Shown: piece after piece, positions 4,615 through 37,511 of the stretch | Layout of the letters: every line of letters begins with the position of its first letter | Numbering within the stretch: the stretch's first letter is position 1 | From: a virus | Lineage: Duplodnaviria > Caudoviricetes | Virus record (IMG/VR): IMGVR_UViG_3300036832_001810 | Coordinates: 1-63,568 of that record | Length of the DNA stretch: 63,568 nucleotides | Direction: 5' to 3' (one strand) | Notes under the pieces: generated by a model | What the model saw: the letters and a program-made list of their open reading frames with translations, nothing else | Told to the model about the DNA's origin: nothing | Databases searched by the model: none | Position numbers and translations under genes: made by a program

Positions 4615-7125
4615 TCAGTCCTCGTCGTCTTTGTACTGTTGGGGTGGGGAGATGCGCAGGTCGTTGGGCGTGATCCCGTAGACCCGTGGGGGTTTGCCGG
4701 CGTGGTGATTGCGCGGCCTTTCGATACGGAACAGGTGGGGTCGGAGGCTCAGGCGCTTCGACATCCAATTGGGCGGCATGGGCCGCTGCTCCTGTTTCTT
4801 GCACCAGGCCCCGTAAGCCGTCATCAGCTCGGGGAGAGCGCAACTGAAAGCCTGGAATGGGCCAAGCGTGCAGCAGTCGTGAAAGAAATCGTCGAGGCCG
4901 TCGGCGGCGATATCTTCTTGGCGCAGCGTTTGTACGTTGCGCTCTACGTCGAGCGGTCGCATCAATCCCTCCTTTTCGCGGCGCAGCGCGCCCTCGATGA
5001 ACCAGGTCGTAATCTGGTCGCCTTCAGCGGCGCACAGCTCCTCGGCCAGGCGCTTGTTCATGCGCTCGGTGGAGATTTGCACCGCAAAGTGGATGGGGTG
5101 CAGGCGCCGCAGGAAGGCGTCGTCCTCGGTGTCGATGCGCGGTACTTCGTTGGTTTCGAGAAAGATCTTGGCGGTGGGCGTGAAGGTGATCGAGTCGCGG
5201 AATTTCAGATTGGCCGAGACCGTGCCCACGCCCTGGGTGAGGATCTTGAGTAGGGCCTCGTCGAACTTCTGGCCGGCCGGCGGCTCGCTCGAAATTACCA
5301 GGCGCGCGCCGCGCGTGGTGGCCAGCTCCATGCGCCGGTTGCTGTCGCCGACCGTGCGGGCGTTGGTCAATACGTTGGCGCTGATGCGCTGGGCGCAGGT
5401 GCCGAGGATGGTTTCGAGGATGGCGAGCACGGTGGATTTGCCGTTGTTGCCGGTCTTGCCGTAGAGGCAGAAGAAGACTTTCTCCGACACGTCGCCGGTC
5501 ATGGCATAGCCAAAGACCTTCTGCAGGTAGTCGATCATGCGCTCAGCCTTTTCGATGGCCTCTTGCCCGGCGTCGGGGCCGCCGCCCATCAGCTCGTCGA
5601 GCGTTTCCAGAAAGCGCCGGGGCGGGCCGAGCGCGGGGTCGTAGCGGTGCGGGACGATGCGCGTGAAGTAGTCTTCGCGCTTGGACGGGCGCAGTTGTCC
5701 GGTGTTGAGGTCGAACGTGCCGTTCAACAGCGGGATCAGGCGCGGATGGTTGTCGAGCGCCTCGACCGGGATCGCCGCCATGCGCCGCGCGGCTTTGATC
5801 ATATTCTCCAGGCCGGCCATGTTGCGGGTCTTGTGCCCGTGTTTCCAGAGGCCCTCGTCGTTTTTGGCGGTCGCCTGGTTCTGGGTCAGTTGCATGGCGT
5901 CGCGCGCGTAGCGGTAGACCGTGCAGTCGTCGGTGTCGGGCACCCAGTACGCGTCGTTCCAGGCGAGCCAGCCGAGCGCGGCGCAATAGCGCAGGTTCCC
6001 CTTGGCGAACGCGAGCAGGCGCTGGCCGTTGCCGGTGTCGTTGCGCTCGAAGCGCGTCAGGTCGGACTCGTCGGTGTCGCTCGTGGCGGGCGGCGCCGCT
6101 GGCGGCCGGCCGTTGATCTCTCTCCCGTTGACGGGCGCTTTGCTGCGCGCGGTGGCGTCATGCGGATCGCCGAGCGGGCTGTCTTTGGCGATGGCCAGGA
6201 ACTCCTCGAAGCTGTGACCCAGCTCATCCCAGTCCCAGAGGTCGCCTGACTCGGGCAGGCCGGGGAGCGTGACCACGCGCGCGGGCACGCCGGCCGCCAC
6301 CAGGGCGCCCGCGTTCTTCTTCCCGCAGCCCGCGCCCACGGCGTCGTTGTCGCAAGCCACGTAGACCACTTCCGCGCCCTGGAAGCGCTCTGCGTATTGG
6401 TTATTCCAGCTCTTCTCGCCGTTCGGCAGGCAGGTGACCGCCACCGGCCAGCCGCTTTGTTTGACGCGGTCGCGCGCCTTCTCGCCGTTGGCCAGGATGA
6501 TCACGCCGTGCGCCTGGGCGGCGGCGACAACCTCGGGCTCGTGGTAGAGCGCGGTCAGCTTGTCCTTGCTGAGGTGGCGCGCCCAGCCTTTATTGGGGCC
6601 GGGTTCAAACCAGAGCATCTGTTTGTCGCCTGGTTTGTCGAGGTTATCGAAGCGCACCTTGATACGCTCGCCATAGACGTAGAGCGCGCGCGGCTGCCAG
6701 TTGCCGCCGCCGGTCTTCTTGGCCAGCCAGGCGTGGCCCTCTTCGATGTTTTTGGCGAGCAGGCGCAGCCGCCAGGCTTCGTTCGTGATTTCGGTGGGCG
6801 GCTTAAAGGGCAGCTTCCAGGGCGAATCGACGGCGCGGCCGATCACGTCGTAGATGTACTGCCAGGCCTCCTCGCCCTGCAGGTTGTAGCGCTGTTCCAC
6901 CCACTGGTACATGCCCCAGCCCTTGCCGCCGCAGCGGGTGTGGCAGCAGGCTACACCCTCGCGGTTGTTGATCGAAAGCGCGCGCGGGTTTTTGCCGTCG
7001 TGCATCACGCAGCGCGATTCCATCTGGTCGCCGCCGATAGCGCGCGCGTCGGGGCACTCGTGCTTGAAGAAGCGCTCGCTTTCGGCGATGGTCGGCTGGA
7101 AATTGCCCGGCGAGAAGGCGCTCAT
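4615..7125 (-). CDS. DNA primase-helicase (Zn finger + TOPRIM + D5/P4-type SF3 helicase)
   Basis: CxxH..CxxxC N-terminus; NGEKA and DND TOPRIM motifs; NDTGNGQR D5_N; GKTGNNGKS Walker A; P4-primase-like C-terminus. Confidence 0.9.
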   Translation of the reverse strand: MSAFSPGNFQPTIAESERFFKHECPDARAIGGDQMESRCVMHDGKNPRALSINNREGVACCHTRCGGKGWGMYQWVEQRYNLQGEEAWQYIYDVIGRAVDSPWKLPFKPPTEITNEAWRLRLLAKNIEEGHAWLAKKTGGGNWQPRALYVYGERIKVRFDNLDKPGDKQMLWFEPGPNKGWARHLSKDKLTALYHEPEVVAAAQAHGVIILANGEKARDRVKQSGWPVAVTCLPNGEKSWNNQYAERFQGAEVVYVACDNDAVGAGCGKKNAGALVAAGVPARVVTLPGLPESGDLWDWDELGHSFEEFLAIAKDSPLGDPHDATARSKAPVNGREINGRPPAAPPATSDTDESDLTRFERNDTGNGQRLLAFAKGNLRYCAALGWLAWNDAYWVPDTDDCTVYRYARDAMQLTQNQATAKNDEGLWKHGHKTRNMAGLENMIKAARRMAAIPVEALDNHPRLIPLLNGTFDLNTGQLRPSKREDYFTRIVPHRYDPALGPPRRFLETLDELMGGGPDAGQEAIEKAERMIDYLQKVFGYAMTGDVSEKVFFCLYGKTGNNGKSTVLAILETILGTCAQRISANVLTNARTVGDSNRRMELATTRGARLVISSEPPAGQKFDEALLKILTQGVGTVSANLKFRDSITFTPTAKIFLETNEVPRIDTEDDAFLRRLHPIHFAVQISTERMNKRLAEELCAAEGDQITTWFIEGALRREKEGLMRPLDVERNVQTLRQEDIAADGLDDFFHDCCTLGPFQAFSCALPELMTAYGAWCKKQEQRPMPPNWMSKRLSLRPHLFRIERPRNHHAGKPPRVYGITPNDLRISPPQQYKDDED

Positions 7126-7135
7126 GGCCGGCCCC

Positions 7136-16026: not shown

Positions 16027-19000
16027 ATGACGACGATTCAAGACTTCCTTCCCTATGCCGATGGATCACCCGCCAGCGGGCGGCTGGTGATCTATTGGAA
16101 GTCCTTCGTCGTCTCCAGCGTGACCGTGGCGGGCGGCGAGCTGGAATTTGAGATCGTCAACGGCAACGTCACGCTCTCGCTCTATTCAAACGCCAATGCG
16201 CTGCCGACCGGCAGCTACTATAACGCCAAGTACGAACTGGAGAATGGCGCCGTCTACGTGGAGCAATGGATCGTTCCGAATACGCCCACGGCCACTCTGG
16301 GCCAGGTGCGCGTCTCCTTCCCGCCGTCGCCTTCGGTGATTATCTCCCCGCTGCAGCTTTCCTCGCTCGGCGGCCAGCCCGGCATGTTCCTCATGTGGGA
16401 TGGCAATAAGTGGGTGCCCGGCTACCCGAGCACCTTCAACATGAACCCGAATTACATCAGCGTGGCGGCCGGGGGCTCGGGCACGGATGTCAATATCGTG
16501 GGCTCGCCGGTAGCTTTGGGCAACCTGGTCACGATCAACGTGCCCGATGCCAGCGCGACCGCGCGCGGCGTGGTCACCACGGCGGCGCAGACCTTCGCCG
16601 GCGCCAAGACCTTTACCGGCAATGTAAGTATGGGCAACCTGACGGTCACGGGCACCGTGACCCTGCCGCCCAACTCCTATGTGCCGGTGGCCCGCCGGGT
16701 GATCGCCGGCACGGGGATGACGGGCGGCGGCGCGCTCACCGCCGATGTGACCTTGAATGCGCCCGTGATGATCGCATCGGGAAGCGGGCACGCGGCGGGC
16801 ATCGCGCCTGATCCCGGTGCGACTGCAGGCGCGACGCGCTTCTTGCGTGAGGACGCGACCTGGGCGGTCATCAATGCGAGTTCCATCGGCGTTGTGCCGA
16901 CTACGCGCCAGGTGCTGGCTGGTCCCGGTCTTTCTGGCGGCGGCTCGCTCGCGACCGACGTGACGCTCTCCGCGCCGGTGATGGTGGCATCGGGAGCTTC
17001 GCATGCGGCCGGCCTCGCGCCTGATCCTGGCGTAACCGCAGGCGTAACCCGCTATCTGCGCGAGGACGGCACCTGGGCGGTGCCGCCGGGTGGCACCAAC
17101 AGCCCGCTGACCACCAAGGGCGACCTCTACGTCTACACCACCATCAACGCGCGCCTGCCCGTTGGCTCTGACGGCTATGTGTTGACGGCCGATTCCACGC
17201 AGGCCTCCGGCATGAAGTGGGCGGTTGCGGCTGGCGGTTTCGTTGACCCGACGACTACCAAGGGCGACTTGATTGCACGCGGCGCGGCCGCACCGGCCAC
17301 CCGGTTGCCGGTCGGCACCGATGGCCTGGTGTTGACGGCCGACAGCACGCAGCCGCTCGGCGTGAGGTGGGTCGCGGTGGGTGGCGGCGCAGGCAATGTA
17401 ACGACCGTTTTCGGGCGCACTGGCGCGGTGGTTCAGGTCACCGGCGACTACACGGCGGCGCAGGTCACCAACGCGGTGGACACGACGCAGGCTTATGCCA
17501 ATCCCGCGTGGCTCATCTCTCTCGCCTGGAGCAAGATCACCGGCGCACCGGCGACGGGGGTCAGTACTGTATTCGGGCGCAGCGGCGCGGTGGTGGCTGC
17601 GGTGGGCGATTATACGGCGGCGCAGGTAACCAACGCCGTCGATACCACACAGACCTATCCCAACCCAGCCTGGATTCCGAGCTATGCGTGGAGCAAGATC
17701 ACCGGCGCACCCGCGACCGTGCCGCCCACCCGTCAGATACTCGCGGGCGCGGGCCTCAGTGGCGGCGGTGCCCTGAGCGCGGATGTAACTCTTGCGGCAG
17801 TTCCGATGGGCGCGAGCGGCGCGTCGCACGCGGCGGGCATGGTGCCCGATCCCGGTGCCACAGCGGGCACAACCCGCTTCCTGCGCGAGGACGCGAGCTG
17901 GGCGGTGCCTGCGGGTGGGGCCGGGTCGCAGACGCCCTGGTTGAGCAACATCGATGGCGGCTTATTTAATCTCTCTCGCGTTTCTTACGTAGCGATTACG
18001 ACAGGTACGGCCACTACACCTGGAGGAGCGCCTGCGCTTTATATGGGCCGTTATGACAATTCCAAGCTGGAAGGGATGCTAGCTGTTTCTGCTGCGGCAA
18101 ATGCTATAGCGACAGGATCAATCGCGGGAGATTTTGTCATTCGCGCAAATCAGCCTGGCAACAACTTGTGGTTTGCCACTCCTGATGGAACGGGCCGGAT
18201 GGTGTTGACGAATTCTGGGAACATCGGCATCGGCACGGCGTCTCCCCAGAATCTTCTGTCCGTTTATTCTTCTTCTTCCAGCGTTCCCGCCAACGCAAGC
18301 GTGACCTCAGATGGAGTCTATGGTCAATTGATTGTGGCTGGTTACGGCACTTCAACTCTTGGAGGGATTCTCACCGGAGTCTCAGCGAGGGGCACGAGTG
18401 CTGCACCCACAGCAACTCAAGCGGGTGACATCATACTGCTCGTTCAGGGTAACGGATATTCGAATGCGGTTGCGACTGCGGGAAGCATACGTATTTCTGC
18501 TGAATCTGCCTGGGCCACCAACAACACTCCCGGTTTTATCAGCTTTTGGACCAATCCTGCTAATGGTGGGGTAGAGCGCATGCGGATCACATCGGCGGGG
18601 CTGGTGGGAATCGGAACGGCTTCGCCGGCACTTCCTTTACACATAGTAAGCTCCGGTTATGATCAAGCTATCTTTGAAGGATCAACAAGTACTGGGGCTG
18701 GACTTACAATTAAATCTGCAGTACATCAATTTGATATTCTGACTGATGTTAATAGTTCATTATTTATTTATGACCGTACATCGAACGCATATCGTCTTTA
18801 TATAGATTCTACTGGTAGGGTTGGCATAGGAACATCCGGTCCAGTAACCAAACTGTCCGTAGTATCAAGTTCCAGCATCGATGGTGTGACCGTCTCCAGC
18901 GTGGATCGAGCCAGCGTCTGGTTCACGACGACGGGCGCAAATAACCGGAGCTGGCTGCTGCAAAACGCGGTTGCGGCGGGCGATGATTTCCAGTTCCTGG

Positions 19001-19743
19001 CGTCCACCGCACCAGGGGGCACACCATCGACTATGGTGATGACGCTGAAGGCTGGCGGCAATGTCGGCATCGGGACTACAGTTGTCCCAGTTCGTTTTGC
19101 TTTAAGTGCTAATGGTAATAACGTAGTATATACTTCCATACCAACAAATTCAGTAGCCTTCTTTGGTGGCTTATATTCATCCGCCAGTGATACTATACCC
19201 GCTGCTCTAATCAATATTGGTATTGATCACAATATGGACTATGGAGCTTTCATCGGTTCCATGTATTTTTCTAATAGTCAGGCTGGTTGCGTAATTGGAT
19301 CACGCCATGCGGCAGGCCACCAACCAACAGTCTATGTTCGTAATTTCCAGGTTGGTATTAATAAAGCTATAGCAGCCTATGCGCTTGATGTATCAGGTGA
19401 CTGCAATATCACCGGCACATACCGCCAGAACGGTGTGCCGATCTCGACGGGCGGTGGGGCCATCACCACGCAGAACACCAATCCGGGAACAACATTGGGG
19501 GGCACCTATCAGAACACCACCGGCAAGCCGGTCTTCCACACGGTGACCGTCGCTATGCTAAGTACCTCTGGCGCTCTGACCGCAGTCACGGATTCATCGA
19601 GCGCCCCCTCGACAACCGTCGCGAACGCAACCACCTCTTCTGGAAGCGCCATCAACGTACCCATCTCATTTTGGGTTTTGCCTAACAACTATTACAGAGT
19701 TACGTCAGGCGGAACCCTCCAGTATTGGACGCAGTGGTCTTAA
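16027..19743 (+). CDS. Long modular tail fibre / receptor-binding protein
   Basis: Internal repeats (GGGxLxADVTL...TRFLRED x3, TTKGDL x2, VFGRxGAV x2), multiple GxVGIGT units. Confidence 0.85.
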   Translation: MTTIQDFLPYADGSPASGRLVIYWKSFVVSSVTVAGGELEFEIVNGNVTLSLYSNANALPTGSYYNAKYELENGAVYVEQWIVPNTPTATLGQVRVSFPPSPSVIISPLQLSSLGGQPGMFLMWDGNKWVPGYPSTFNMNPNYISVAAGGSGTDVNIVGSPVALGNLVTINVPDASATARGVVTTAAQTFAGAKTFTGNVSMGNLTVTGTVTLPPNSYVPVARRVIAGTGMTGGGALTADVTLNAPVMIASGSGHAAGIAPDPGATAGATRFLREDATWAVINASSIGVVPTTRQVLAGPGLSGGGSLATDVTLSAPVMVASGASHAAGLAPDPGVTAGVTRYLREDGTWAVPPGGTNSPLTTKGDLYVYTTINARLPVGSDGYVLTADSTQASGMKWAVAAGGFVDPTTTKGDLIARGAAAPATRLPVGTDGLVLTADSTQPLGVRWVAVGGGAGNVTTVFGRTGAVVQVTGDYTAAQVTNAVDTTQAYANPAWLISLAWSKITGAPATGVSTVFGRSGAVVAAVGDYTAAQVTNAVDTTQTYPNPAWIPSYAWSKITGAPATVPPTRQILAGAGLSGGGALSADVTLAAVPMGASGASHAAGMVPDPGATAGTTRFLREDASWAVPAGGAGSQTPWLSNIDGGLFNLSRVSYVAITTGTATTPGGAPALYMGRYDNSKLEGMLAVSAAANAIATGSIAGDFVIRANQPGNNLWFATPDGTGRMVLTNSGNIGIGTASPQNLLSVYSSSSSVPANASVTSDGVYGQLIVAGYGTSTLGGILTGVSARGTSAAPTATQAGDIILLVQGNGYSNAVATAGSIRISAESAWATNNTPGFISFWTNPANGGVERMRITSAGLVGIGTASPALPLHIVSSGYDQAIFEGSTSTGAGLTIKSAVHQFDILTDVNSSLFIYDRTSNAYRLYIDSTGRVGIGTSGPVTKLSVVSSSSIDGVTVSSVDRASVWFTTTGANNRSWLLQNAVAAGDDFQFLASTAPGGTPSTMVMTLKAGGNVGIGTTVVPVRFALSANGNNVVYTSIPTNSVAFFGGLYSSASDTIPAALINIGIDHNMDYGAFIGSMYFSNSQAGCVIGSRHAAGHQPTVYVRNFQVGINKAIAAYALDVSGDCNITGTYRQNGVPISTGGGAITTQNTNPGTTLGGTYQNTTGKPVFHTVTVAMLSTSGALTAVTDSSSAPSTTVANATTSSGSAINVPISFWVLPNNYYRVTSGGTLQYWTQWS

Positions 19744-19752
19744 AGGAGACTT

Positions 19753-20040
19753 ATGACTTACGAAGAATCGGCAGCATTGATGGTCGATCCTGAATTCCGT
19801 GGGCGTGTTAAGGTGGCGTGCCTGAAGTACGCGGACTCCATCATCGGTGAGCCCACGGGCACCCCGGCTCACAACACGCGCCTCAAATGGGCCCAGTTCT
19901 GCGTCCAACAACCGGACCAAACGGCAATGCAGGTACAGCCTCCCACCGTGATGGACGCGGAGGTCCAGGCCGATGGAGCCGATATCACCGATGTGGCCCT
20001 ACAGGCCTCTGTCGAAGTGACCGTCAACAAAATGATGTAA
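19753..20040 (+). CDS. Hypothetical protein (fibre-associated)
   Basis: AAGGAG RBS; follows the fibre gene. Confidence 0.7.
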   Translation: MTYEESAALMVDPEFRGRVKVACLKYADSIIGEPTGTPAHNTRLKWAQFCVQQPDQTAMQVQPPTVMDAEVQADGADITDVALQASVEVTVNKMM

Positions 20041-34335: not shown

Positions 34336-35313
34336 ATGGTAGCAAATTTGTATCGCATCCCGAAGCCGCAAACCGTGAACGAAAAGAAAACCAAAACCGC
34401 CCTGGAGGTCATGCTGGTCACGCCCGAGTTGCTAGGGAAGTGGAGGTCACCGCCGTTCCAGCGTCCGGTGCGGCAGAACGAAAAGGTGAGGGCGCTGGCG
34501 GAACAGATGAAGCTGGAGGACGGGATCTGGCCGGGTATCATCACGCTCGGCGTGTTGAATGGCGAGACCTATATCATCGACGGCCAGCATCGCAAGGAAT
34601 CCTTCCTGCTTTCCGGCTTGAAGGAAGGCCTGATCAACGCCTGTATCCACTACTTCCAAAGTATGGCCGAGATGGGCGAGGAATTCGTCAAGCTCAACAG
34701 CCAGCTCGCCCGCATGCGGCCCGATGACATTCTGCGCGGCCTGGAAGACTCAATCCCCGGCCTGAAGCGAATCCGCATGACCTGCCCCTTCGTCGGCTAT
34801 GATTTCATTCGCCGCAACACGGCGACGGCCCCCATGGTCGGCATGTCGGTCACCATCCGCGCCTGGTGCGGCAGCACGACCGAGGTTCCGAGCCCGAACC
34901 ACGGCGGCATGTCGGCGGCGGGCATGGCAGAGACCATGGACGACAGTGAGTACGACAGCCTGATCCAGTTCCTGACCATGGCGAACACCGCCTTCGGGCG
35001 CGATCCGCAATACGGGCGTTTGTGGAGCGGCTTGAACCTGATCATTTGCATGTGGATGTACCGCCGCCTGGTGCTCAATCCGCCCTCGTCGCCCAACTCG
35101 CGCTCGCAGCAGCTCACCAAGGACATGTTTAAGAAGTGTCTGATGAGCGTGAGCGCCAGTTCCGATTACGTAGACTGGCTCCTGGGCCGGAACATCGGCG
35201 AGCGCGATAGGGCTCCGGCCTATGCCCGCCTTAAATCTATCTTCGCCAAACGGCTGGCGCAGGAGGTGGGGCATAAAGTCAGTTTGCCGCAGCCTGCCTG
35301 GAGCAGCCGGTAA
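34336..35313 (+). CDS. ParB/Srx-superfamily DGQHR-motif protein
   Basis: FQRP..., YIIDGQHR, F.KLN motifs; AAGGAG RBS. Confidence 0.75.
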   Translation: MVANLYRIPKPQTVNEKKTKTALEVMLVTPELLGKWRSPPFQRPVRQNEKVRALAEQMKLEDGIWPGIITLGVLNGETYIIDGQHRKESFLLSGLKEGLINACIHYFQSMAEMGEEFVKLNSQLARMRPDDILRGLEDSIPGLKRIRMTCPFVGYDFIRRNTATAPMVGMSVTIRAWCGSTTEVPSPNHGGMSAAGMAETMDDSEYDSLIQFLTMANTAFGRDPQYGRLWSGLNLIICMWMYRRLVLNPPSSPNSRSQQLTKDMFKKCLMSVSASSDYVDWLLGRNIGERDRAPAYARLKSIFAKRLAQEVGHKVSLPQPAWSSR

Positions 35314-35404: not shown

Positions 35405-35686
35405 ATGAGAATGAAAAATGGTGTGTCCGATGATCTGTTGATCACCGATCTAGTTAAGCGTGCGGTCACCATGGCCGTGCCGGAAGTGATCGCCGCGCTT
35501 GCGCACCAGCAGAAGCCGGCAGCCCGCCTTTTATCAATCGATGAAGCCGCCGCCTACATTGGTGCTTCCAGGCGACAAATGCAAGAAATGCTGCACACCG
35601 GAGAAATTCCGAAAGTTGGTCGTGGTCGCCTGGTGCGCGTAGACCGTCGCGACCTGGAATTCTGGATCGAGCAAAATAAACGTTGA
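35405..35686 (+). CDS. xis: Excisionase-like HTH protein
   Basis: RLLSIDEAAAYIG.S...GEIP...GR.VRV.R.DL..WI; directly upstream of the integrase. Confidence 0.8.
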   Translation: MRMKNGVSDDLLITDLVKRAVTMAVPEVIAALAHQQKPAARLLSIDEAAAYIGASRRQMQEMLHTGEIPKVGRGRLVRVDRRDLEFWIEQNKR

Positions 35687-35722: not shown

Positions 35723-36823
35723 ATGACGAAAAAAGAAAAGTATCTGTATCGACGCGGCGAGATGTGGTGGGTGAAGATCCCAAGAGGGCCAGGGCTGCGG
35801 CCCTTGTTTGAGTCCACCGGCATCCGGGCGGATGAGAAGAACCCGGACAAGGTGCCCGAAGCGGCGAAGGAATTTCGCGACAGCAAGCTGGTGCAGAAGC
35901 ATCGCAACGAAATGCGAACGACCGGCAATCAGACGGCGACTTGCGGCGAGCTGCTCGATGACCTCATCGCCAGATGGGAAGCGAACGGCAAAGAGTCCTC
36001 GTGCTACTCGCTGAAGAAAGTGGTTGAAGCGCACCTGCGCCCCTCGTTCGGCTCCATTCGCGTGGCACGTCTGACGACTGCGATGCTGGAGGCGTACCGG
36101 ACGAAGCGAGGGAAGATGGGACGCAGCGGCGGGACCATCAACCGCGAGCTGGCCTACTTCCGTATCGCGCTCAAGGACGGCCAGAAAACCACGCCGCCGA
36201 AGGTCCTGGCAATCCCGCACTTCCCGATGGTCAGCGAGGTGGACAACGTCCGCACGGGGTTTCTGAAGCGCGAGGACTACGAGACGCTGTTGTTTGAGCT
36301 GCCAGCCGAAGTGCAGCCCGCGCTAGTGATCGGCTATCACGTTGGCATGCGCTTCACCGAAATCACCAAGCTGACCTGGAAGCACATTCGGCCAGACCGC
36401 AAATTCATCCAGCTTGGCAACCCGGATGTAAAGAACCGTCAGGGCAGACTGATCCCAATCTATGGCGACATGAAGATTGTGATTGAGGAGCTGTGGCGGC
36501 AACACCAAGAGCAATACCGGGACTGCCCCTGGGTCCTGCATCGCAACGGCGTTCGCATCGCGAGCTTCAAGGGCGCCTGGGAGCAGGCGACGATCCGCGC
36601 GGAAGTCGCCAGCCTTCTCTTCCATGACCTGCGCCGCAGCGCCGCGCGCAACATGCAGCAAGCCGGCATCCCGCGCTCCACCATCATGAAGATCATGGGC
36701 CACAAAACGGAATCGATGTTTATCCGCTATCAGATCGTGGACGAGGAAGACATCGCCGCCGCAGGCGAGAAGATGGAAGCGGCAACGCCGACTGTGGTGT
36801 CCATCAACAGCAAGCGAGCCTGA
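35723..36823 (+). CDS. int: Tyrosine integrase
   Basis: GMRFTEI, K, FHDLRRS, GHKT...RY catalytic motifs; TINREL. Confidence 0.95.
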   Translation: MTKKEKYLYRRGEMWWVKIPRGPGLRPLFESTGIRADEKNPDKVPEAAKEFRDSKLVQKHRNEMRTTGNQTATCGELLDDLIARWEANGKESSCYSLKKVVEAHLRPSFGSIRVARLTTAMLEAYRTKRGKMGRSGGTINRELAYFRIALKDGQKTTPPKVLAIPHFPMVSEVDNVRTGFLKREDYETLLFELPAEVQPALVIGYHVGMRFTEITKLTWKHIRPDRKFIQLGNPDVKNRQGRLIPIYGDMKIVIEELWRQHQEQYRDCPWVLHRNGVRIASFKGAWEQATIRAEVASLLFHDLRRSAARNMQQAGIPRSTIMKIMGHKTESMFIRYQIVDEEDIAAAGEKMEAATPTVVSINSKRA

Positions 36824-36845
36824 ATTATTTTCATCCGTTCAAAGG

Positions 36846-36882
36846 GAGCCAGCGCCGCGAAGGCACTGGCTCTTTTTCTTTT
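36846..36882 (+). terminator. Intrinsic terminator between int and the tRNA
   Basis: GAGCCAG...CTGGCTC hairpin followed by TTTTTCTTTT. Confidence 0.8.
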
Positions 36883-36968
36883 GGTGCGGGCGAGAGGGCT
36901 TGAACCTCCACGGCCTTTCGGCCACCAGATCCTAAGTCTGGCGCGTCTGCCAATTTCGCCACGCCCGC
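36882..36968 (-). tRNA. tRNA-Leu, anticodon TAG, complete with encoded CCA
   Basis: GCGGGCG acceptor stem, TGGCGAAATTGGCAGACGC D arm, CCAGA-CTTAGGA-TCTGG anticodon arm, long variable arm, GTTCAAG T loop, ACCA end. Confidence 0.95.
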
Positions 36969-36983
36969 ATTGTAACCGCCCAC

Positions 36984-37178
36984 TTTGGTTACAAAATTGG
37001 TTACAATCACCGTGTAACTTGTTGATTCTAAAGGTAATTCAACTGGAACCTAAATCCGAAATACCGCAACGCAGCATAGCGCAACACAGCGCAAAATAAG
37101 GGTGTTAGGCGTTTCCGTGAAGACGTAAAAACGCACCTCAGCGCATCATTTGGTTACAAAATTGGTTACAAGGTTACA
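36984..37178. mobile_element. attP-like site: arm repeats, IHF box and tRNA-Leu anticodon-like core
   Basis: Exact 23-bp repeat TTTGGTTACAAAATTGGTTACAA at 36984-37006 and 37149-37171; AATCAACAAGTTA (minus, 37015-37027) fits WATCAANNNNTTR; core GGATTTAGGTTCCAG (minus, 37043-37057). Confidence 0.8.
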
Positions 37179-37232
37179 GGCCGATTTTGGCCTGTTTTTG
37201 GATAAAAAGTCCACCGCGTCTGCCGGTTCTTT

Positions 37233-37499
37233 CTAGCCCCTCGGCGCGAAGTAAACCGACACGGGTCCGGCGGTGTCGCTACTGATCCAGACGTTCTGCG
37301 AGAGCGGCATGCCGGGCAGGTACATGCCCGCCGGCACGACGAAGCTCGTGGCGTTCGCGCCCGCGTTCGACTGGTCGCTGATGTAGAGTTTGCCGGCGCC
37401 GTTCAGGACGTAGACGATGTAGTGCCCGGCGCTGGGCGGCGTGAGCTGCACGGGCGTGTTGACCGCGAGCGTGACCGTGTTGAACATGCCAAGAGCCAT
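37233..37499 (-). CDS. Small beta-rich protein, possibly virion-associated
   Basis: ORF composition only. Confidence 0.55.
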   Translation of the reverse strand: MALGMFNTVTLAVNTPVQLTPPSAGHYIVYVLNGAGKLYISDQSNAGANATSFVVPAGMYLPGMPLSQNVWISSDTAGPVSVYFAPRG

Positions 37500-37511
37500 G
37501 CGAGCAGCATA

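Follow-up and report, generated by a model that had tools for sequence, protein, structure and literature searches.

An attP-like region with an anticodon-arm core beside a spare tRNA-Leu(UAG) gene in a soil phage predicted to infect Acidobacteriota: a probable case of tRNA-dependent lysogeny

What becomes of a host tRNA gene when a phage integrates into it and brings along only a fragment of that gene is the question raised by the integration module of the virus record IMGVR_UViG_3300036832_001810 (Duplodnaviria; Caudoviricetes). The window analyzed here is the entire IMG/VR record, a linear stretch of 63,568 bp with a completeness rating of 99%. Next to its tyrosine integrase gene (int) lie a complete tRNA-Leu(TAG) gene and, on the same strand, an isolated 17-nt copy of part of the anticodon arm of a tRNA-Leu(UAG) gene, flanked by tandem repeats. 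We consider it probable that this is the attP region of a temperate Terriglobia phage acting by tRNA-dependent lysogeny. The anatomy of the sequence, its identity to real host tRNAs, the architecture common to related elements and the outcome of a simulated integration are seen directly; as no junction was found, integration and its site remain inferred.

As Williams reportedly described in 2002, subfamilies of integrases differ in the part of a tRNA gene that they prefer, some taking the anticodon loop and others the T loop or the 3′ end. According to the Islander abstract, islands normally restore the gene that they split. The term tRNA-dependent lysogeny stems from work on actinobacteriophages (Guerrero-Bustamante & Hatfull, mBio 2024, PMC10865867), and its defining features, as given in excerpts of that paper, are cores of 8-17 bp in host tRNA genes, the lack of a rebuilt tRNA and the need for a cognate phage tRNA if the lysogen is to survive. 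The same excerpts describe related integrases with canonical cores of 33-52 bp, and putative arm-type pairs that flank the core. The cases named in them are Fionnbharth (K4), LeBron (whose core is 17 bp) and Cluster L, Cain (K6) and Gaia (X), the last with a tRNA-Leu-CAA downstream of int, and Lj965 of Lactobacillus johnsonii is mentioned as a possible case outside the Actinobacteria. In a passage of a second paper (PMC12429752) the mechanism is said to be described for Sinorhizobium (rhizobial) prophages that resemble a Mesorhizobium phage.

In the mechanism proposed for the present phage, a lambda-like tyrosine integrase would bind tandem arm-type repeats (TGTAACC, in the tRNA sense) on either side of a 17-bp core, and this core would copy the anticodon arm alone of a host tRNA-Leu(UAG) gene. 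Strand exchange would take place within the 7-nt anticodon loop and, because the attP is without the variable arm, the T arm and the 3′ strand of the acceptor stem, the host tRNA gene would be split and not rebuilt. After integration the host tRNA promoter and the orphaned 5′ half of the host gene would come immediately before the phage tRNA-Leu(UAG), which would be the only decoder of CUA codons in the lysogen. The elements on which this proposal draws are given below, with distances counted from the start of the anticodon-loop sequence in the core.

36882..36968, minus strand: complete phage tRNA-Leu(TAG) gene with encoded CCA (ARAGORN; Rfam RF00005, 54.9 bits, E = 7e-11).
36971..36977, minus strand: inverted GGTTACA unit just upstream of the tRNA 5′ end.
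36984..37006, minus strand: putative P′ arm, a tandem pair of arm-type units reading TGTAACC on the tRNA-sense strand, at +49 and +61.
37015..37027, minus strand: consensus-level match to an integration host factor (IHF) site, located between P′ arm and core.
37041..37057, minus strand: putative attP common core of 17 nt, with 3 nt of the 5′ stem, the 7-nt loop (37054-37048), the 5-nt 3′ stem and 2 nt beyond.
37149..37178, minus strand: putative P arm, a tandem pair and a third TGTAACC unit (37172-37178), at -116, -104 and -124.

The two arms hold an exact repeat of 23 nt, TTTGGTTACAAAATTGGTTACAA, whose copies at 36984-37006 and 37149-37171 are 100% identical. These GGTTACA-containing repeats had been pointed out in an earlier reading of the letters of the window, made before any database search (hereafter the sequence-only reading), as had a consensus IHF box, and both are there. 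All six matches to GGTTACA in the window fall in 36971-37178; shuffled sequences held a mean of 2.05 per window and reached at least six in 3 of 100 cases, but in these the matches were scattered and not clustered. On the tRNA-sense strand the arm-type unit of the window reads TGTAACCAA, and such units stand on both sides of the core, at -124/-116/-104 and at +49/+61, where they would be the binding sites of the integrase. The IHF consensus WATCAANNNNTTR is matched at 37015-37027 on the minus strand, the one match in the 3.6 kb searched against 0.04 expected.

Between the arms lies the anticodon-arm mimic, GGATTTAGGTTCCAG, on the minus strand at 37057-37043. It had been described as a tRNA-Leu(TAG)-like anticodon stem-loop without the rest of a tRNA, and this description holds: over 36500-37500 Rfam gave no tRNA-like match at E <= 10 besides the phage tRNA, so that the mimic is an isolated arm. 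The sequence-only reading pointed to bacterial tRNA-Leu(TAG) genes as the place in which its counterpart should be sought. The 15-mer of the mimic was searched in 401 genomes of the class Terriglobia, which was chosen because the sole relative of the integrase in a scan of species genomes is a metagenome-assembled genome (MAG) of that class. It occurs exactly in 28 of the 401 genomes, at 29 places, against 3 places for the reversed control (as read from the table), and in each of the 12 loci fetched, with 13 genes between them, it proved to be the anticodon arm of a tRNA-Leu(TAG). The identity reaches 17 nt with four of these 13 tRNAs (L017, L023, L024 and L025) and with the tRNA of genome G312; it comprises three bases of the 5′ stem, the TTTAGGT loop, TCCAG as the 3′ stem and a further TT. 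When the 142-nt stretch between the repeats was compared with nine distinct Terriglobia tRNA-Leu(TAG) sequences, the longest exact match was likewise 17 nt, a length reached by none of 1000 shuffles of the stretch (maximum 12). The identity with host tRNAs stops 14 nt past the loop start, and the phage sequence beyond the 17 nt is not tRNA-like; a canonical restoring attP would continue from the crossover as tRNA sequence up to the 3′ end, and no such segment is contiguous with the core. The target type CTGGATTTAGGT was found in 10 of 151 sampled Terriglobia genomes, and from the 17-nt core the predicted hosts are Terriglobia lineages in which the tRNA-Leu(UAG) reads CTGGATTTAGGTTCCAGTT. A 189-nt contig of a relative, from a third sample, keeps the layout tRNA-P′-core, and all six of its listed differences lie outside 37041-37057, one of them lengthening the host identity by one base.

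Integrated relatives of the integrase offer a second line of evidence on where the crossover would fall. Relatives with 30-47% identity abound both in soil metagenomes and in Terriglobia, where 25 of the 401 genomes have one at E <= 1e-40. Of 12 metagenome/genome loci, 6 have the integrase beside a tRNA-Leu gene, and so do 14 of 28 genome loci; the latter count excludes two more loci, which belong to the unpublished genomes G255 and G098. A second copy of the tRNA 3′ half was found in 4 of 12 relative loci examined for it, and was absent within the DNA fetched at the eight loci L063, L064, L066, L068, L069, L059, L004 and L005, whose elements may extend past that DNA. All four relatives for which both ends were found have an attL/attR direct repeat that starts 0-2 nt ahead of the anticodon loop and extends for 55-64 nt, through the tRNA 3′ end; the targets are tRNA-Leu(CAG) for L002 (in G001), tRNA-Leu(TAG) for G312, tRNA-Leu(CAG) for G320 and tRNA-Leu(TAA) for G385. 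These four are canonical elements, which recombine within the anticodon loop and restore the gene. Each has a short element-specific repeat in tandem pairs on both sides of the core, and their arm units (TGTTAACGG, TGTACTTG, TGTGCGGA) resemble that of the window. The upstream pair stands, relative to the first base of the loop, at -116/-104 in L002 and again at -116/-104 in G312, and in the window a pair stands at the same distances from the loop of the mimic. This agreement in arm position is independent of the sequence match, and would place the crossover in the mimic. The phage thus shares with the canonical Terriglobia elements an integrase family (33-44% identity), a crossover at the start of the anticodon loop (in the phage a predicted one) and arm pairs on both sides; unlike it, those elements carry the whole tRNA 3′ half, identical over 55-64 nt, and so rebuild the gene; they have their P′ pairs beyond the tRNA end and hold no extra complete tRNA.

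Could the crossover instead fall in the loop of the phage's own complete tRNA-Leu(TAG)? The attP would then be a canonical one, integration would leave two whole genes, and the mimic would be a relic or a coincidence. The converging layout of int and tRNA is indeed the one seen in the canonical integrated elements of G312, G320 and G385, and the 5′ half of the phage tRNA is of the commonest Terriglobia type, so that potential targets would be many. Counted from the loop of the phage tRNA, however, the pairs are all on one side, at about -56/-68 and -221/-233, and no unit lies on the int side (the six GGTTACA matches again being confined to 36971-37178), whereas the four relatives are all two-sided. 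Moreover, the 17-nt match of the mimic to another tRNA type and the -116/-104 spacing would become an unexplained double coincidence. For these reasons a crossover in the phage tRNA seems quite improbable.

Some further observations were made on Terriglobia tRNA-Leu(TAG) genes. In three genomes (G044:C11, L085/L086; G008:C4, L087/L088; G065:C9, L090/L089) the tRNA-Leu(TAG) 5′ half is present as direct repeats of 40 nt with 12-30 kb between them; each copy starts at position 1 and ends one base beyond the anticodon loop, the downstream one being part of a whole gene and the upstream one a fragment. They look like mirror-type elements, in which a crossover in the same loop would restore the 5′ half and not the 3′ half. 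The contig G051:C2 (L020/L061) has two complete target-type tRNA-Leu(TAG) genes, at 6194-6280 and 7042-7128, which are 848 bp apart and lie within a 105-nt repeat of 91% identity; the duplicate may have arisen by tandem duplication or be a scar left by an element. In several genomes (L036 = G001:C2, L018, L019 and L059) the tRNA-Leu(TAG) gene stands back to back with one for tRNA-Lys(TTT), and at G001:C2 and L034 an integrase of the same family adjoins the tRNA-Lys instead.

If strand exchange takes place in the mimic, as tRNA-dependent lysogeny would have it, what is left of the host gene? attP and attB were recombined in silico inside the loop for four candidate attB sites, and ARAGORN was run on the products. 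With all four predicted attB sites the simulated attL held the phage tRNA only and the simulated attR held no tRNA; given the predicted attB, a core of 17 nt is too short for a functional tRNA to be rebuilt at either end, and the host gene would therefore be split and unrestored. CUA decoding needs tRNA-Leu(UAG) by the standard decoding rules, so that loss of the host tRNA should do harm unless it is made good by the phage copy. A pattern for the tRNA-Leu(TAG) 5′ half, run on the 151 sampled Terriglobia genomes (many of them incomplete MAGs), matched in 136, with one match in 126 genomes and two in 10; these tallies include the unpublished genomes G076, G098 and G107, on which no claim rests. 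Four of five candidate hosts have a single tRNA-Leu(TAG) copy.

The proposed substitute is the sole tRNA that ARAGORN finds in the 63.5-kb window. The sequence-only reading had placed a complete tRNA-Leu(TAG) with the arm CCAGA-CTTAGGA-TCTGG about 75 bp from the mimic, and ARAGORN and Rfam agree: the anticodon arm reads CCAGA-CTTAGGA-TCTGG, and the gene begins 74 nt past the end of the mimic and 86 nt past the loop start of the core, in the same orientation. That reading had also called the gene a recoded replacement; the claim of recoding is weak, as D-arm and anticodon arm both match exactly the natural type of tRNA-Leu(TAG) that is commonest in Terriglobia. The 5′ half (D-arm to anticodon loop inclusive, matched over 22 nt) is that of the commonest type among the 151 genomes sampled; 14 Terriglobia tRNA-Leu(TAG) genes match the 3′ anticodon stem as well and so have the same anticodon arm, and to these the phage tRNA is identical at 69-76 of 87 nt. 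It is therefore best seen as a natural allele from another lineage, and this different origin explains its difference from the target. The phage arm differs from the 17-nt core at six positions, two of them among the seven of the loop, at the loop ends. It is plausible that these mismatches protect the phage tRNA from self-targeting; excerpts of PMC10865867 describe attP/attB mismatches as strongly deleterious for such integrases, and speculate on the phage tRNA as a secondary attB.

With regard to expression, no minus-strand terminator was found between the core and the phage tRNA, and read-through from the host tRNA promoter after integration would be a reasonable route. Because the spare tRNA lies 86 nt from the loop start and is co-oriented with the target, such read-through is plausible; in Fionnbharth, unlike here, the tRNA lies elsewhere and has its own demonstrated promoter, according to excerpts of PMC10865867. 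A more specific form of the proposal is put forward tentatively, as an idea that we hold possible and would not yet call likely: that the spare tRNA is promoterless and is switched on by the very integration that destroys the host gene (promoter capture), and that the mismatches in its arm block its targeting as a second attB in direct repeat with attP.

The mimic could also be the core of a phage whose tRNA is ordinary cargo, serving lytic translation or a defense against tRNA targeting, and is not needed by lysogens. Phage tRNAs are common and other roles have been proposed for them, as excerpts of PMC10865867 note; one candidate host MAG does have a second tRNA-Leu(TAG), and the scan for a promoter of the phage tRNA found none. 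What speaks for a role in lysogeny is that a single tRNA in 63.5 kb should carry the anticodon of the target and stand, co-oriented, 86 nt from the loop start. The target is, moreover, single-copy in 126 of the 136 sampled genomes with a match, and CUA codons generally need tRNA-Leu(UAG). A cargo tRNA beside a functional core is accordingly regarded as rather unlikely.

The recombinase itself is encoded just beyond the tRNA, behind a small open reading frame (ORF).

35405..35686, plus strand: candidate excisionase or recombination directionality factor of 93 aa, with an HTH_17 domain (Pfam PF12728, E = 1.3e-12, 48.2 bits), directly upstream of int.
35723..36823, plus strand: tyrosine integrase P0001 of 366 aa (Pfam PF00589, E = 1.4e-18).

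The candidate role of the 93-aa ORF as an excisionase (Xis) draws on its HTH_17 domain and on its position. The integrase ORF is intact, and its AlphaFold2 model, made from an alignment of 44 sequences, has a mean predicted local distance difference test score (pLDDT) of 87.7. The N-terminus of the model (residues 8-60; block pLDDT 82-93) consists of strands at 8-11, 14-19 and 28-35 and a helix at 46-60, followed by core-binding and catalytic domains, and the top fold match is full-length lambda integrase (1z1g_B; 360 aligned columns, E = 2.9e-8). Pfam gave no arm-domain family for the N-terminus, only a sub-threshold SAM-like match. The modeled build would thus be three-domain and similar to lambda Int, and fits an arm-binding integrase. 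Compared with lambda attP and Int (1z1g, 1z1b, 5j0n), the likeness lies in the fold, for which lambda Int is the best match with the N-terminal domain included, and in a core set between arm-type sites with an IHF-consensus site in between. It is unlike lambda in sequence, with 15-19% identity to lambda Int, and in its setting, as the lambda attB lies outside tRNA genes and lambda is without a tRNA, according to excerpts of PMC10865867. Two integrases on short public contigs of 1353 and 2672 nt, P0002 (91% identical to P0001) and P0003 (52%), indicate that closer relatives of the phage have already been sequenced.

Several observations weigh against tRNA-dependent lysogeny in this phage or against parts of it. 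No attL/attR junction and no lysogen of the phage was found in the species genomes, IMG/VR or the public-run contigs searched. In the scan of species-representative genomes with the integrase, the best relative has 44% identity, and no close integrated relative was seen; among the Logan contigs listed, only the attP form is present through the core. The candidate hosts are mostly MAGs and are hosts by prediction, and one of them (G202) has a second tRNA-Leu(TAG), so that loss of the target might be tolerated in some hosts. A scan for a sigma-70-like promoter found none for the phage tRNA, which is weak evidence, as the promoters of this phylum may not fit the consensus. The -116 spacing is not universal, the upstream arms being at -144/-133 in G320 and a single shared unit at -81 in G385. 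The P′ pair stands at +49/+61 in the window as against +112 to +173 in the relatives, 63-83 nt nearer the core than in L002 and G312; this is expected if the tRNA 3′ half is simply absent, and it means that the geometry of the intasome differs from that of the characterized canonical elements. The claim of the sequence-only reading that attP targets a tRNA-Leu(TAG) arm, that the host tRNA is split and that the phage copy substitutes for it thus draws support from the 17-nt identity, the arm positions, the crossover of the relatives and the simulation, while the lysogens or junctions splitting the host tRNA that it led one to look for were not found in the collections searched.

The second tRNA-Leu(TAG) of G202 (G202:C98; L062 5090-5171) has a CTTAGGA loop and sits directly upstream of an ORF resembling trigger factor; it may be a genuine second gene or may stem from contamination of the MAG.

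Searches of sequence collections for the phage gave the following results. In IMG/VR, scans with the integrase, with the 23-nt repeat and with the core plus P′ flank each returned 0 matches. The phage, or a variant, is present in the attP form in the public runs X1 and X2, and in X1 a contig (record 7) carries this form through the core; X4 and most of the contigs matched are tRNA-Leu genes of other organisms. Among the Logan rows listed, no joint or loose end was seen at the core, which is uninformative on integration. The contigs of X1 and X2 break at 36933/36951, inside the phage tRNA, and because this tRNA is common to many soil bacteria the breaks are taken as unrelated to integration. 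Depths on either side of the break are similar (14 vs 11.7 in X1), and the acceptor stem, GCGGGCG/CGCCCGC, pairs perfectly across it. Mis-assembly at the tRNA was considered and rejected: the acceptor strands on different Logan contigs pair perfectly, and the stem type is unlike that of the host. A search with the large terminase (TerL) in the five candidate hosts gave only a 31%-identical TerL on another G312 contig, which is likewise uninformative.

That lysogens and junctions are missing from the collections searched would also be expected if the attP-like module were inactive, that is, a remnant in a phage that has ceased to integrate or does so at a different site. The state of the module argues otherwise: the 23-nt arm repeats are exact copies, the core matches genes of living hosts exactly over 17 nt, int is an unbroken ORF whose model is confident, there is an Xis-like ORF as well, and the core is kept in the relative from another sample. 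An inactive module is hence very unlikely.

How the phage relates to the actinobacteriophages of PMC10865867 can be judged from excerpts of that paper. Like them it has a tyrosine integrase, flanking arm-type pairs and an attB in a host tRNA gene (here a predicted one); its core is too short to rebuild a tRNA (17 bp, compared with 8-17 bp there), its tRNA has the anticodon of the target, and the close relatives of its integrase use long canonical cores. With Gaia it further shares a tRNA-Leu target (again a predicted one here) and a tRNA downstream of int. It is unlike them in its host phylum, which is predicted to be Acidobacteriota and not Actinobacteria, in its target, tRNA-Leu(UAG), and in that the mechanism is experimental there, and the phage here is known from its sequence alone. 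A literature search found no report joining Acidobacteria, prophage, integrase and tRNA-Leu, and among the titles and abstract starts listed for the term tRNA-dependent lysogeny none concerns Acidobacteria. The novelty implied by the sequence-only reading falls away, the strategy having been published in 2024 (PMC10865867); this is very probably a new example of that strategy and not a new principle, and the first found for a phage predicted to infect Acidobacteriota.

The example would extend tRNA-dependent lysogeny, until now shown by experiment only in actinobacteriophages as far as excerpts of PMC10865867 indicate, to an uncultivated soil phage predicted to infect Acidobacteriota, and would show that a single integrase family of the phylum has both canonical att sites and ones that break the tRNA. 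For annotation, a lone phage tRNA beside int can be a lysogeny gene, and an attB can be found from a very short anticodon-arm match that is located by the geometry of the arm sites.

As to the setting of the module, primase, helicase, a tail-fiber-like protein, a virion structural protein and the portal are encoded to its left, and a 1474-aa internal-virion/transglycosylase protein and then TerL to its right. As phage genes flank both sides, the integration region is in the free-phage (attP) arrangement. The window as an integrated prophage with host flank was ruled out, given structural and packaging genes on both sides; it is the genome of a free temperate phage. On the plus strand the order is the Xis-like ORF, the tyrosine integrase, a hairpin, the tRNA-Leu(TAG) gene (minus strand) and a 264-bp non-coding stretch, 36969-37232. 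A search of a phage collection gave tRNA-level matches only (78-81% identity) and no phage relatives. The source is soil, and the host is predicted to be a lineage of Terriglobia (Acidobacteriota). Two hairpins were noted, one between int and the tRNA gene and one at the P arm.

36841..36877, no strand assigned: hairpin with 16-nt arms (81% complementary), a 5-nt loop and a T run after it on the plus strand, likely a shared terminator of the converging int and tRNA genes.
37176..37195, plus strand: terminator-like hairpin at the outer edge of the P arm, an 8-pair stem followed by a T run; a weak call, as shuffles give 1.3 such sites per region.

At 37195-37224 on the minus strand, about 170 nt upstream of the core, lies a fragment that resembles a tRNA-Leu D-arm and anticodon arm. 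It starts with GGCAGACGCG, identical to the phage and host tRNAs over 10 nt, continues as GTGGA-CTTTTTA-TCCAA, and is identical to 36934-36951 at 15 of 18 positions. The fragment may be a relic of a tRNA 5′ half or may be due to chance, about 0.1 such matches being expected in a 700-nt region.

Elsewhere in the window, G+C drops to 0.52 at 18001-20000, against 0.60-0.69 in the rest; the dip covers the 3′ part of a 1238-aa tail-fiber-like ORF (16027-19743) and is of the kind typically seen where a receptor-binding module has been exchanged. Two genes upstream of int, a 325-aa ORF at 34336-35313 on the plus strand has a sub-threshold match to GmrSD_N, the N-terminal domain of a restriction endonuclease (E = 0.0026, 18.4 bits, cutoff 33.2), and is a possible defense or moron gene beside the integration module.

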